Virus record (IMG/VR): IMGVR_UViG_2617270938_000006
Strand: one strand, 5' to 3'
Source of the DNA: a virus
Taxonomy: Duplodnaviria; Heunggongvirae; Uroviricota; Caudoviricetes
DNA length: 3,382 bases
Numbering within the stretch: position 1 is the stretch's first letter; the number at the start of each line of letters is the position of its first letter. The notes under the pieces are model-generated. The model made no database searches and had not been told where the DNA came from. It was given only the letters and a program-made list of their open reading frames with translations. Of this stretch, positions 1 to 3,382 are shown piece by piece. Made by a program: the position numbers and the translations under genes.

Positions 1-198
1 ATCGCTGTTGTTCTTTTTCAGACGGGCCATGCACCCGCAAATGATCATCGCGTCATCGTCACAACATTGTGGGCGAGATTTTACTTTTGAAGGAATTAAT
101 CCCTTAAAACCGGCGGCAATGGACGACCAGGTCACATCTTCATGATTATTAGCCGCCCACGCTCCCCAACGCTCAAGAACCATCTGAATATCACGCAT
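1..198 (-). CDS. quuD: Q-type late-gene antiterminator, N-terminal 66 codons only (gene continues beyond the left window edge)
   Basis: Minus-strand ATG at 198-196 preceded by GGAG about 7 nt upstream; open frame with no stop to position 1. Translation [66 protein letters not shown] matches my recollection of the DLP12 QuuD N-terminus and contains a Cys cluster (CC...C-x-C). Sits downstream of rusA/ylcG as in lambdoid nin-Q regions. Not in the supplied ORF track because it is truncated. Confidence 0.7.
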
Positions 199-283
199 CA
201 ACTTACTCCACAAAAATCAGACCAGAACGCCAATTACAAGCAAAAATCAACAAAACAGTATTAGTTGATTGTTATCTCTGACT

Positions 284-421
284 TCATACTCCTGCTCCTG
301 TCAGGGTTTTGGCGTAATTCTTCAGTATTCGGTAATCGGTCAAAACAGAACCGGGGAAACGATATAAGCGCAGACGCCCCCAGCGGTGGCGAAGAAGTTC
401 TGCCATATAAAACTCAAACAT
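284..421 (-). CDS. Small phage protein, YlcG-like by position (45 aa from the ATG overlapping the rusA stop; 40 aa if it starts at the internal ATG 406-404)
   Basis: Minus-strand frame [45 protein letters not shown], stop TGA at 286-284. The first ATG (421-419) shares one base with the rusA TGA stop (ATGA coupling). Located between rusA and Q, where ylcG lies in DLP12. Sequence identity to YlcG not verified. Confidence 0.45.
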   Translation of the reverse strand: MFEFYMAELLRHRWGRLRLYRFPGSVLTDYRILKNYAKTLTGAGV

Positions 422-783
422 CATTCATTCCCCATTTCGGTGATGGTCAGTTCCAGCCTCCCACCTTTGGTAACAGGCATCTTCACAACGCGGTAATCAA
501 CGACCTGAGCATCATCCAGCCAGAAACCTGCTTTGGTGAGTGCGTCAAAAGCGGCTTTTTGCAGATTATCCAGGTCACGGCGACGGCGATCCGGCATGTG
601 GCACTCAATACGGATTTTCACTGGCATAGCCAGGCCGATATCCAGCATTGCGTTTTTAATGATTCGGGTGACGTTATCGCGGTATGCCTGCCCTTCTGCG
701 CTGATGTGTGTGCGCCCGCGATTATGGCGGTAGTAGCGGTTATTGCTCGGCGGCCAGGGTAGTGTGATGTGGTAAGTATTCAC
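421..783 (-). CDS. rusA: Crossover junction endodeoxyribonuclease RusA (Holliday junction resolvase), 120 aa
   Basis: ORF-track protein [38 protein letters not shown]... is near-identical to E. coli RusA as I remember it. Acidic residues D70, D72 and D91 (RRDLDNL...LDDAQ) are present. Start codon is GTG (783-781) preceded by AAGAGGGGG about 10 nt upstream, with an in-frame TAA two codons upstream. Confidence 0.95.
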
Positions 784-893
784 GCCTTAATTACCCCCTC
801 TTTCAGCCAGATATTTCCCGGCCTTTCTGTTATCAGAAATCCACTGAAAGCACAGCGGCTGGCTGAGAAGATAAATAATAAACGGGAGGCGGT
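784..893. promoter_or_regulatory. Divergent intergenic joint between rusA (-) and the plus-strand operon; putative promoter/operator region
   Basis: 110-bp non-coding gap between divergently oriented first genes. Contains both ribosome-binding sites (GGGAGG 884-889 for the 894 ORF; rusA SD on the other strand), an AT-rich stretch GATAAATAATAAA (870-882) and an 8-bp inverted repeat TCAGCCAG (803-810) / CTGGCTGA (859-866). No -35/-10 pair can be called reliably by eye. Confidence 0.3.
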
Positions 894-1085
894 ATGCACA
901 AAGCATCTCCTGTTGAGTTAAGAACGAGTATTGAGATGGCACATAGCCTTGCTCAAATTGGAGTCAGGTTTGTGCCAATACCAGTAGAAACAGACGAAGA
1001 ATTTCATACGTTAGCCACATCCCTTTCACAAAAGCTGGAAATGATGGTGGCGAAAGCAGAAGCAGATGAGAGAGACCAGGTATGA
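894..1085 (+). CDS. Hypothetical small acidic phage protein (63 aa), first gene of the plus-strand operon
   Basis: ATG at 894 with strong SD GGGAGG 4 nt upstream; 63 codons; net acidic (about 11 D/E against 6 K/R). Its TGA stop (1083-1085) overlaps the ATG (1082-1084) of the next small ORF. Size and position recall the orf61/orf63-type small genes of lambda's pL operon, unverified. Confidence 0.6.
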   Translation: MHKASPVELRTSIEMAHSLAQIGVRFVPIPVETDEEFHTLATSLSQKLEMMVAKAEADERDQV

Positions 1086-1165
1086 CAACCACTGAATGCA
1101 TTTTTCTGGCAGCGGGCTTCATATTCTGTGTGCTTATGCTTGCCGACATGGGGCTTGTTCAATGA
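1082..1165 (+). CDS. Candidate 27-aa hydrophobic micropeptide MTTTECIFLAAGFIFCVLMLADMGLVQ (single predicted transmembrane helix)
   Basis: Absent from the ORF track (too short). ATG 1082-1084 overlaps the upstream stop as ATGA; its own TGA stop (1163-1165) overlaps the ATG (1162-1164) of the downstream ORF, again as ATGA. It bridges exactly the 77-nt gap between the two flanking ORFs. About 20 consecutive hydrophobic residues. Confidence 0.4.
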   Translation: MTTTECIFLAAGFIFCVLMLADMGLVQ

Positions 1166-1377
1166 CACCTCAGCAAGAAAACGCCCTTCGCAGCATTGCC
1201 CGTCAGGCTAATTCTGAAATCAAAAAAGCCAGACAGCATTTTCCGGATAAAAACGTCGATGACATTTGCCGTAGCGTACTAAAGAAGCACCGCGAAACGG
1301 TAACGCTGATGGGATTCACACCGACTCATTTAAGCCTGGCGATCGGCATGTTGAACGGCGTCTTTAAGGAACGGTGA
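1162..1377 (+). CDS. Hypothetical small basic phage protein (71 aa)
   Basis: Frame of track ORF 1096..1377, but I favour the internal ATG at 1162 (MTPQQENALRSIARQANSEIKKARQHFPDKNVDD...) because it is stop/start-coupled to the micropeptide and the 1096 ATG has no SD. Net basic (about 12 K/R against 7 D/E). Function unknown. Confidence 0.5.
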   Translation: MTPQQENALRSIARQANSEIKKARQHFPDKNVDDICRSVLKKHRETVTLMGFTPTHLSLAIGMLNGVFKER

Positions 1378-1398
1378 ACATGAAAAGCAAAATCATCA

Positions 1399-1426
1399 GG
1401 GAGCTACAGGCTCCTTTTTTATTATT
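1399..1426 (+). terminator. Putative Rho-independent terminator
   Basis: GGAGC (1400-1404), 5-nt loop TACAG, GCTCC (1410-1414), followed directly by TTTTTTATTATT (1415-1426); 22 nt past the stop at 1377. The stem is only 5 bp (extendable to 7 with G-U/A-U at the cost of the U-tract), so strength is uncertain. Confidence 0.35.
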
Positions 1427-1475
1427 CGCATTTACCCTCAAGCGTATTAACCAACAATTCAGGGATTAATGAAAG

Positions 1476-1694
1476 ATGGCAGACATCATTGATTCAGCAT
1501 CAGAAATCGAAGAATTACAGCGCAATACAGCAATAAAAATGCGTCGTCTGAACTACCAGACTGTATCCGCAACTCATTGTTGTGAGTGTGGCGATCCGAT
1601 AGATGAGCGAAGACGCCTAGCTGTTCAGGGTTGTCGGACTTGTGCGAGTTGCCAGGAGGAGATCGAACTTAAGAACAAACAATGGGGACTGTGA
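1476..1694 (+). CDS. TraR/DksA-family C4 zinc-finger protein (72 aa), likely RNA-polymerase secondary-channel binding regulator
   Basis: Exact C-x2-C-x17-C-x2-C spacing (Cys35, Cys38, Cys56, Cys59: HCCECGDP...GCRTCASCQ), the DksA/TraR zinc-finger signature. N-terminal D3-x-x-D6-x-A8 (MADIIDSA) matches the DxxDxA tip motif of this family. AGGGA about 10 nt upstream of the ATG. Confidence 0.85.
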   Translation: MADIIDSASEIEELQRNTAIKMRRLNYQTVSATHCCECGDPIDERRRLAVQGCRTCASCQEEIELKNKQWGL

Positions 1695-1741
1695 TGGCCT
1701 CAAAGCAGCAAATTTCAACATCGTCCAACTGAGGTGTAAAA

Positions 1742-2020
1742 ATGTTCAGAATCATTTTTCCTAACACCTGGTACGTCGACCACCACGGCACTCCCTGCAA
1801 AATCCTGCGTTCTACCCACAACAAAGTTCACTACATCCGAAAAGGCAGAACATGTATCGCCAGCATGTTCCGCTTTAATCATGACTTTGAACCTGTGAAT
1901 AAAGCTGATGCAGATCGGATAGCAGAAGAGATCGAAACGGCAGAACACATTAAGAAGTTACGTGACATGCGTTCAAAAAGCAGAGGTAACCATGGAATCA
2001 TACAGCCTCACACTCGATGA
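1742..2020 (+). CDS. Hypothetical phage protein (92 aa) immediately upstream of, and overlapping, xis
   Basis: ATG at 1742 with SD GAGGTG 5 nt upstream. Overlaps the xis start by 29 nt in a different frame. The core WYVDHHGTPCKILRSTHNKVHYIRKGRTCIASMFRFNHDF loosely resembles small DUF4222-type prophage proteins as I recall them, unverified. Confidence 0.55.
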   Translation: MFRIIFPNTWYVDHHGTPCKILRSTHNKVHYIRKGRTCIASMFRFNHDFEPVNKADADRIAEEIETAEHIKKLRDMRSKSRGNHGIIQPHTR

Positions 2021-2363
2021 GGCCTGTCAGTTTCTTAAGATATCCAGACCAACCGCCACCAACTGGATACGAACAGGCCGCCTACAGGCAACACGTAAAG
2101 ATCCAACCAAGCCAAAATCTCCTTACCTCACAACACGGCAAGCCTGCATTGCGGCGCTTCAGTCTCCGCTGCATACTGTCCAGGTGAGCGCGGGTGATGG
2201 CATAACAGAGGAAAGAAAATGTCACTCTTCCGCAGAAATGAAATATGGTATGCCTCGTATTCGCTCCCGGGCGGGAAACGAATTAAGGAATCTCTTGGCA
2301 CAAAGGACAAGCGGCAAGCTCAGGAGTTGCACGACAAGCGAAAAGCAGAACTCTGGCGAGTAG
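1992..2363 (+). CDS. xis: Excisionase (Xis), AlpA/Xis-family helix-turn-helix DNA-binding protein; 123 aa if the frame is read to its stop
   Basis: ATG at 1992 with SD AGAGGT 4 nt upstream (the track's 1962 start is a GTG without SD). N-terminal [37 protein letters not shown] is a typical excisionase HTH/wing and matches my memory of P22/DLP12-type Xis. Lies directly upstream of int. The frame stays open to 2363, 145 nt into int in another frame, so the 3' boundary is less certain than the 5' end. Confidence 0.75.
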
Positions 2364-3382
2364 AAAAGCTAGGGGATTTACCTGATGTCACTTTTGAAGA
2401 GCCCTGCCTAAGATGGCTTGAGGAAAAAGCTGATAAAAAATCTCTCGATTCAGATAAAAGCCGGATTGAGTTCTGGCTTGAACATTTTGAGGGTATAAGG
2501 CTTAAAGATATCTCGGAGGCAAAGATTTACTCTGCTGTAAGCAGAATGCATAACAGAAAGACGAAAGAAATATGGAAACAGAAAGTTCAGGCCGCCATCA
2601 GGAAAGGTAAAGAACTGCCTGTTTATGAACCAAAGCCAGTATCAACTCAGACAAAGGCAAAGCATCTTGCCATGATAAAGGCCATTCTCCGTGCTGCAGA
2701 ACGCGACTGGAAGTGGCTGGAAAAAGCGCCTGTCATCAAGATACCAGCGGTCAGAAACAAGCGAGTCAGATGGCTGGAAAAGGAGGAAGCAAAACGCCTT
2801 ATTGATGAGTGCCCCGAACCACTGAAATCTGTCGTCAAGTTTGCGCTGGCAACTGGTCTGAGAAAGTCGAACATCATAAATCTGGAATGGCAACAAATCG
2901 ACATGCAGCGACGAGTTGCCTGGGTGAATCCAGAAGAGAGCAAATCAAACCGCGCCATTGGTGTGGCGCTGAACGATACCGCCTGTAAAGTGTTGCGTGA
3001 TCAAATAGGCAAGCATCACAAATGGGTGTTTGTACATACCAAGGCGGCTAAGCGAGCAGATGGAACATCAACGCCTGCGGTCAGGAAGATGCGCATCGAC
3101 AGCAAGACATCATGGCTATCAGCTTGTCGTCGTGCAGGAATTGAAGATTTCCGTTTCCATGACCTCAGACACACCTGGGCAAGCTGGCTGATTCAGTCAG
3201 GCGTCCCATTATCAGTGCTTCAGGAAATGGGCGGATGGGAGTCCATAGAAATGGTTCGTAGGTATGCTCACCTTGCGCCTAATCATTTGACAGAGCATGC
3301 GAGGAAAATAGACGACATTTTTGGTGATAATGTCCCAAATATGTCCCACTCTGGAATTATGGAGGATATAAAGAAGGCGTAA
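2219..3382 (+). CDS. int: Phage integrase, tyrosine site-specific recombinase (P22/DLP12 IntD-type), 387 aa, complete
   Basis: ATG at 2219 with SD GAGG about 7 nt upstream; TAA at 3380-3382. N-terminus [33 protein letters not shown] and C-terminus ...[29 protein letters not shown] match my recollection of P22 Int / DLP12 IntD. Catalytic signature visible: R215 (TGLRKS), H314-x-x-R317 (FHDLRHTW), Y349 (VRRYAHL). Confidence 0.95.

Follow-up and report, generated by a model that had tools for sequence, protein, structure and literature searches.

A collapsed DLP12-type prophage at argU in Escherichia coli and a recurrent TA/TA signature of prophage deletion joints

The DNA analyzed here is a 3,382-nucleotide stretch (IMG/VR record IMGVR_UViG_2617270938_000006), called the window throughout, that is 100% identical to bases 1-3382 of the Escherichia coli draft contig JNMO01000066.1 (GCA_000700385.1; locus L015). 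It carries two gene arms of lambdoid type, a rusA-Q arm on the minus strand and an xis-int arm on the plus strand. The contig continues with the tRNA-Arg(UCU) gene argU at 3398-3474, 16 bp past the int stop codon, and then with fimZ and the sfm operon. The tRNA end sought to the right of int in a preliminary description of this DNA is thus that of argU, and its position 16 bp beyond int identifies the element as a DLP12-type cryptic prophage. Homologous genes of DLP12 alleles at argU in complete genomes carry the names intD, rusA and quuD from the Prokaryotic Genome Annotation Pipeline (PGAP), and the locus is the argU site of DLP12. We consider it very likely that the window represents the end next to argU of a lambdoid cryptic prophage of DLP12 type, the center of which has been removed by successive deletions.

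In BLAST comparisons with phages and complete E. coli genomes the window falls into two parts at a single point. Positions 1-813 match the rusA arm of DLP12 alleles, and positions 812-3382 match the intact phages Turner, PhiR34_1, 2G7b and ev243 at 99-99.8% identity, so that the two matches overlap by the TA dinucleotide at 812-813. Here the last 30 bp of ybcO (10 codons; 784-813, minus strand) are fused to codon 25 of a homologue of λ orf60a, a DUF1317 gene. Alignment of the former to the intact ybcO of locus L001, Turner and strain TKEC21-59 (L149) stops at 813, and its stop codon overlaps the rusA start. The orf60a remnant (814-921, plus strand; 35 codons and the stop; Pfam DUF1317 profile 26-60 of 60, 1.2e-17) lacks the first 24-25 codons. 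The parent sequences at the joint, CAGCCAGA-TA-ACCTG in ybcO and GGCTGGG-TA-TTTCCC in orf60a, have TA as their sole homology and share no repeat. Window position 812 corresponds to Turner base 3805, within the DUF1317 coding sequence (3732-3914) just downstream of exo, and the missing parts of both truncated genes are present in Turner and in TKEC21-59. The preliminary description had anticipated a deletion or recombination joint between the arms, and this comparison locates it to the base. Its proposal of a deletion-collapsed cryptic prophage, a variant of DLP12, likewise agrees with the adjacent argU, the intD, rusA and quuD alleles and the truncation of both genes at the joint. The joint is also spanned by a chimeric 50-aa open reading frame (ORF; 769-921, plus strand), which joins the antisense of the rusA 5' end in frame to the DUF1317 C-terminus and probably is non-functional. 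This ORF is called as a gene, with a DUF1317 Pfam match, on 20 public contigs.

The other genes of the two arms were assigned, like those at the joint, from Pfam and PHROGs profile matches to the window ORFs. On the minus strand, rusA (421-783; GTG start at 783; 120 aa; Pfam RusA, 1.6e-22) has a complete RusA domain (PF05866 profile 1-123 of 124, 80.9 bits; phrog_34, 1.1e-57), and its product is a predicted full-length RusA Holliday-junction resolvase. It is followed by ylcG (284-424, minus strand; phrog_2705, 2.2e-21), so named in L001 and in K-12, and by the 5' part (1-198, minus strand; 66 codons; Pfam Phage_antitermQ, 8.9e-33) of a gene for a Q-family late antiterminator, which is broken off by the contig start in the window and is full length (125 aa) in the sibling loci L009-L014. 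We further note that the window rusA carries five private substitutions (535, 610, 622, 669 and 709) relative to six compared alleles, and that the region 733-792 alternates between two haplotypes found in other prophages. This pattern suggests short-patch gene conversion among rusA copies.

The plus arm continues from the orf60a remnant with a DUF1382 gene (894-1085; ATG at 894; Pfam 7.7e-31) homologous to orf63 in the λ annotation, both being counterparts of genes in the λ b region (orf60a, orf63, orf61). Next come a small b-region ORF conserved in Turner and λ (1162-1377; phrog_303), a gene for a TraR/DksA-type C4 zinc-finger protein (1476-1694; Pfam zf-dskA_traR, 2.8e-9; phrog_54) and a DUF4222 gene (1742-2020; Pfam 1.9e-19). 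The excisionase gene xis (1992-2363, plus strand; phrog_2907, 5.9e-46; Pfam HTH_17) is full length, residues 1-116 of its 123-aa product aligning to positions 2-117 of the 117-position phrog_2907 profile, and it overlaps int by 145 bp. In RefSeq/PGAP records of the same sequence the sole annotation here is a 66-bp "helix-turn-helix, incomplete" pseudogene, and in the Turner record an ORF is called in a different frame at this region. The full-length int gene (2219-3382, plus strand; 387 aa; Pfam Phage_integrase, 7.4e-47, covering profile positions 1-171 of 172) encodes IntD, a predicted tyrosine recombinase whose translation contains the R...HxxR...Y motifs of the catalytic domain (TGLRKS, HDLRHT, RRYAHL).

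The overall layout is as first described. In the ORF list, the GTG of rusA at 783 and the ATG at 894 are separated by 110 bp (spacer 784-893), the rusA and xis starts lie 1.2 kb apart, and the plus arm has only small ORFs of the λ b-region type ahead of xis-int. Neither the ORF list nor the Pfam and PHROGs assignments place cI/cro, N, O/P or red genes between the arms, in agreement with the reported lack of immunity, replication and recombination functions. In phages, over 10 kb separates the ybcO-rusA block from the orf60a block, and transcription of both runs away from the immunity region; in the window they abut.

The extent of the missing DNA can be read from Turner (PP925837; relatives PhiR34_1, 2G7b and ev243), which is 99.8% identical to the window over 812-3382. 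The two arms map 10,857 bp apart on Turner, and the genes absent from the window are cro, cI, gam, bet, exo, O, P, ren, emrE, ybcK and the nin genes. Unlike the window, Turner is a complete phage record of 48.2 kb with cro/cI, red, O/P and structural genes. It has intD and the DLP12 gene order, with the same nin region including emrE and ybcK, and also carries ren, P, O, cII, cro, cI, gam, bet and exo. Turner is the intact counterpart of the window element and in effect a live DLP12. The window element lacks the contiguous cI/cro, N, O/P and structural genes of a functional lambdoid phage, the 10,857 bp of early region being gone.

The closest complete relative is the DLP12 allele of TKEC21-59 (NZ_CP092452.1), which is identical to the left arm at 813 of 813 positions and to the right arm at 2570 of 2571, and which holds 4,807 bp more between the arms. 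This extra segment comprises ybcO, ninE, ybcN, a tagO-like gene, ren', P, O', ydaT and a cro-like fragment fused to orf60a. As so near-identical an allele keeps 4,807 bp more, the window allele arose in at least two steps, and the cro'-orf60a joint that TKEC21-59 has of its own points to an earlier deletion that preceded the last step of the window. We infer that the TKEC21-59 allele represents the precursor of the window allele. An earlier deletion would have taken cI, N and the red genes, and the last step would have been a 4.8-kb deletion from the TA in the 3' end of ybcO to the TA inside orf60a, removing ybcO, ninE, ybcN, ren', P, O', ydaT and cro'. The window retains the tails of two operons that face each other, that of pR (ybcO', rusA, ylcG and Q) and that of pL (orf60a', orf63, the small ORFs, xis and int).

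Sibling loci were found by an exact-protein look-up with the chimeric 50-aa ORF, which returned 20 public contigs, nine loci of which were fetched. In eight of these (L009-L016) the joint-bearing ORF lies in the argU/fimZ/sfm context; seven other draft assemblies (L009-L014 and L016) carry the window sequence at 99.94-99.97% identity, and the ninth locus (L017), on a contig too short to reveal its neighbors, matches at 100%. An assembly chimera that joined two prophages at a repeat would be conceivable where a contig begins, as here, inside a repeated Q gene. The occurrence of the joint in nine loci from different assemblies excludes this for practical purposes; the junction is also found at another locus in a complete genome (PK8566), and a TA is all that the two sides share where a chimera would call for a repeat. 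We give the chimera a negligible probability, and the collapse by deletion stands as the reading of this locus.

To the left, the sibling contigs continue with Q, a lipocalin gene, ybgA, an AraC-type regulator gene, holin, lysozyme and Rz1 genes, trkG and a ParB-like gene, and the TKEC21-59 allele has the same neighbors (Q, lipocalin, YbgA, AraC-type regulator, lysis genes, trkG). The lysis genes looked for left of Q are thus present, and no immunity, replication or recombination genes occur within 10 kb leftward on the sibling contigs. A 47-bp att repeat derived from argU is kept 16-21 kb from int in K-12, LR-64-1 and 14EC033. The paired att repeats that the preliminary description suggested were not recovered: searches over 22.7 kb left of int in TKEC21-59 and over 12.5 kb in L009 gave no second copy. 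The TKEC21-59 prophage ends instead at a PAAR'-ParB' junction near cusS, and L009 is colinear with it.

At this left end (L149 6107-8360; L009 1-3043) a truncated gene with the PAAR domain of type VI secretion systems meets a truncated ParB-like gene, which is followed by trkG. The PAAR' gene follows vgrG and a DcrB-like gene and adjoins cusS, the trkG/ParB-like pair has a Rac-like look, and the usual appY-ompT-envY end of DLP12 is missing from this lineage along with the att repeat.

With attL lost, Int and Xis are left without a partner site, and the element is probably unable to excise, an immobile remnant as far as its closest complete relative indicates. Expression of λ int requires either pL and N or pI and cII, and rusA of K-12 is silent unless an insertion sequence (IS) is inserted upstream. 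The deletions took pL, pR, N and cII from the window element, and a promoter search over window positions 600-1100 gave no σ70-like match. Because these elements are gone, both arms are now predicted to be promoterless. They could be expressed only in trans, through a co-resident or superinfecting lambdoid phage, and the retained genes probably go unused unless such a phage supplies the regulators. The earlier statement that integration, excision and late antitermination are kept therefore holds only as far as gene content goes, pL, pR, N and cII being gone and the nearest relative lacking attL.

The preliminary description left open a second possibility, a minimal integrative element or phage satellite selected for int-xis and Q/rusA and moved by helper lambdoid phages. 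The full length of int and xis fits such an element, as does a 5.8-kb block with the identical joint in a second prophage at attλ that has a different integrase (L004). Against it, the joint is flanked by truncated genes (ybcO' and orf60a') and not by designed ends, and the near-identical precursor allele still has P, O' and cro'. Leftward, the siblings run on through Q, moron genes and a lysis cassette to trkG, and the second att site is gone in TKEC21-59, the closest complete genome. The Pfam and PHROGs assignments of the window include no genes typical of satellites or phage-inducible chromosomal islands (pri-rep, alpA/stl-type or packaging interference), and functions in replication, packaging or helper interference are lacking. 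The joint is also rare, with two occurrences in 5,426 complete genomes. We regard a satellite as highly improbable and retain the deletion-collapsed prophage as the explanation. Two points weigh against the details of this explanation: the order of the deletions is deduced from one near-identical relative, TKEC21-59, and the window contig starts inside Q, so that the lysis genes, the left end and attL are read from the siblings and L149.

A published survey of 638 E. coli and Shigella genomes reports DLP12 in 74% of them (PMC6379469). DLP12 alleles differ in the joint between the same two arms. The joints are ybcN'-orf60a in LR-64-1, ninE-traR' in 2017-03-3CC, ybcO'-exo in FG92-1 and ybcO'-phrog_303 ORF in 14EC033; Res13 has Q, IS1 and orf60a in succession, and K-12 has P'-exo' and exo-end-xis'. 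The window adds another allele to this series. Like the window, K-12 DLP12 (NC_000913) lies at argU with the gene order intD ... rusA-ylcG-quuD ... essD-rrrD, is 99.6% identical over int and its flank and 93.8% identical over the homologous rusA-ylcG-Q arm, lacks immunity and most replication and recombination genes, and has TA/TA internal joints. Unlike the window, it keeps ybcO-ninE-ybcN-ybcM-ybcL-ybcK-emrE-renD-peaD', has only fragments of exo and xis and has lost orf60a to DUF4222, whereas the window keeps orf60a' through an intact xis and is missing all that lies from ybcO to cro. The 47-bp att repeat, kept in K-12, is lacking in the window's closest complete relative. The ybcO-rusA pair belongs to a nin region of the phage 82 type, YbcO matching PDB 3G27 ("82 prophage-derived ybcO"). 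Taken as an architecture, the collapse is nothing unusual: it gives a new allele of a textbook cryptic prophage and is a case of routine prophage domestication. The interest lies in the TA/TA, hot-site and motif-bearing deletion signature to which the joint led, and how such remnants form could matter.

The left breakpoint of 14EC033 is that of the window to the base, with another right partner that is again joined at TA. Further joints were collected from IMG/VR and metagenome scans for the ybcO left flank followed by any base but A, and from an IMG/VR scan for a second recurrent site; for an unbiased survey, all 140-odd fetched loci were aligned to Turner. TA/TA joints occur in loci L001-L008, L019-L024, L026, L149, L153 and L210-L218, with the Turner-based sites P34796 and P45608 (L027/L003). 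Together these give approximately 33 distinct deletion joints in DLP12/λ-type prophages in which TA is the only homology, and for all 29 joints with available undeleted parents TA stands at the crossover in every parent. These 29 joints have an identical 2-bp core, no other homology and no residual element, as expected of site-preferential deletion by a serine recombinase or a topoisomerase. IS elements are absent from all TA/TA joints, and the deleted flank was not found nearby. In the unbiased survey, 17 of 30 joints are of the TA type. The exact window junction has no match in a scan of GTDB species representatives. A looser 18-mer junction query gave only chance matches among these representatives, and 3 of 41 metagenome matches were relevant, the rest being mostly chance.

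The same TA sites recur with different partners. The ybcO TA (window 812-813), in prophages at argU, attλ and thrW, has eight, which fall within O, a cro-type gene, gam, ea8.5, an N6-methyltransferase gene, orf60a, orf63 and the phrog_303 ORF. Thirteen partners were counted for another TA, 28 bp into orf60a. The retained side of a hot TA site may be either one. The joints of K-12 DLP12 itself are TA/TA. The 31 TA sites used show the palindromic preference 5'-CGGNTANCCG-3', with C at -4 in 19 sites against a background of 0.24 (p = 1e-5) and G at +4 in 16 (p = 4e-4). This preference is further supported by 13 hold-out sites, which reach a motif score of 3.54 of 6 where the background is 1.51; none of 200,000 random sets attained this score. 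The survey includes a single inversion-type joint, at approximately 11790 in PK8566 (L004), which has GTAA at the crossover (n = 1); TA is expected at an inversion joint if the crossover core is palindromic. We found no earlier description of the pattern in the literature on DLP12 deletion endpoints, the TA dinucleotide or ybcK.

The TA/TA pattern is statistically solid and mechanistically unexplained. A seamless joint with a palindromic 2-bp core and symmetric flanks would be the expected trace of a dimeric cut-and-rejoin enzyme, and with less confidence we suggest that the deletions are made by a TA-specific, site-preferring activity of this kind rather than by random microhomology slippage. 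The candidates, namely a type IA topoisomerase, YbcK and YbcO, are circumstantial. Topo-Seq showed that cleavage by E. coli topoisomerase I occurs at TA and depends on a C located four nucleotides upstream (PMC9352719; Sutormin et al., 2022). Similarly, a C stands at -4 from the TA of the joint sites on one or both strands. The register may be off by one base, however, and the published motif (TCNTTA/T) is rich in AT, whereas the joint sites are palindromic and favor G at -3 and -2.

The nin region of DLP12 and Turner encodes YbcK, a large serine recombinase, and enzymes of this class cross over at a 2-bp core. In Turner (L027 7489-9015), by its record an apparently complete temperate phage, ybcK adjoins emrE although the phage integrates by a tyrosine integrase; the K-12 gene lies at L026 5403-6929. 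An att-like site of YbcK beside its own gene was considered and rejected, as no good motif match lies near ybcK and the K-12/Turner mosaic borders there are non-TA. The third candidate, YbcO, is a predicted His-Me/HNH nuclease, and the hottest TA site lies in the 3' end of its gene.

Several known routes to deletion were also rejected. Adjacent deletion by an IS element is not supported, given that the TA/TA joints carry no IS and the deleted flank is not nearby; the IS1 of Res13 (L005) lies between Q and orf60a and not at a hot TA. IS30 makes a 2-bp target duplication and has a hot spot in λ (33244-33498), but this hot spot is unlike the motif. IS630 prefers CTAG, yet only one of 31 sites has C at -1. 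No matching target half was found for the left arm as a transposon end, gyrase with its 4-bp stagger fits TA joints poorly, and the ends of the deleted segments show no consistent terminal inverted repeats.

We propose, tentatively and at somewhat less than even odds, that DLP12/λ-type prophages in E. coli decay largely through an undescribed TA-specific activity that prefers 5'-CGGNTANCCG-3' and reuses hot sites, and that the two-step collapse of the window is one instance. Two observations weigh against this proposal. In the survey, 13 of 30 joints are non-TA, with ordinary microhomologies of 1-11 bp, and the right-hand TA site of the window (orf60a, Turner 3805) fits the motif poorly, with a score of 2 of 6.

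The joint of the window offers a possible case of recurrence. We observe the identical ybcO'-orf60a' joint in another cryptic prophage, that of PK8566 (L004 17272-18928 against window 1-1657). This prophage lies at attλ (ybhC/bioA) and has a λ-type integrase, and its joint falls in a 5.8-kb block held in common with the argU element. The shared joint may reflect either gene conversion between prophages or recurrence at preferred sites. An independent double origin at preferred TA sites would suit the eight partners of the ybcO TA and the single-nucleotide polymorphisms that separate PK8566 from the window within 20 bp on the left (792) and 31 bp on the right (843) of the joint, so that the haplotypes differ close to it on both sides. 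Gene conversion over short tracts reaching just to the homology boundary would yield the same pattern, however, and the common 5.8-kb block also speaks against a double origin, as does the orf60a TA (Turner 3805), for which no other partner was found besides its low motif score. We consider two separate origins less likely than not.

If decay of these prophages does proceed through a TA-directed enzyme, their inactivation would become predictable and experimentally tractable, and the recurrence of identical joints in prophages at different att sites would be explained. It would also point to a possible host or phage function that "grounds" prophages in E. coli in place of random slippage.

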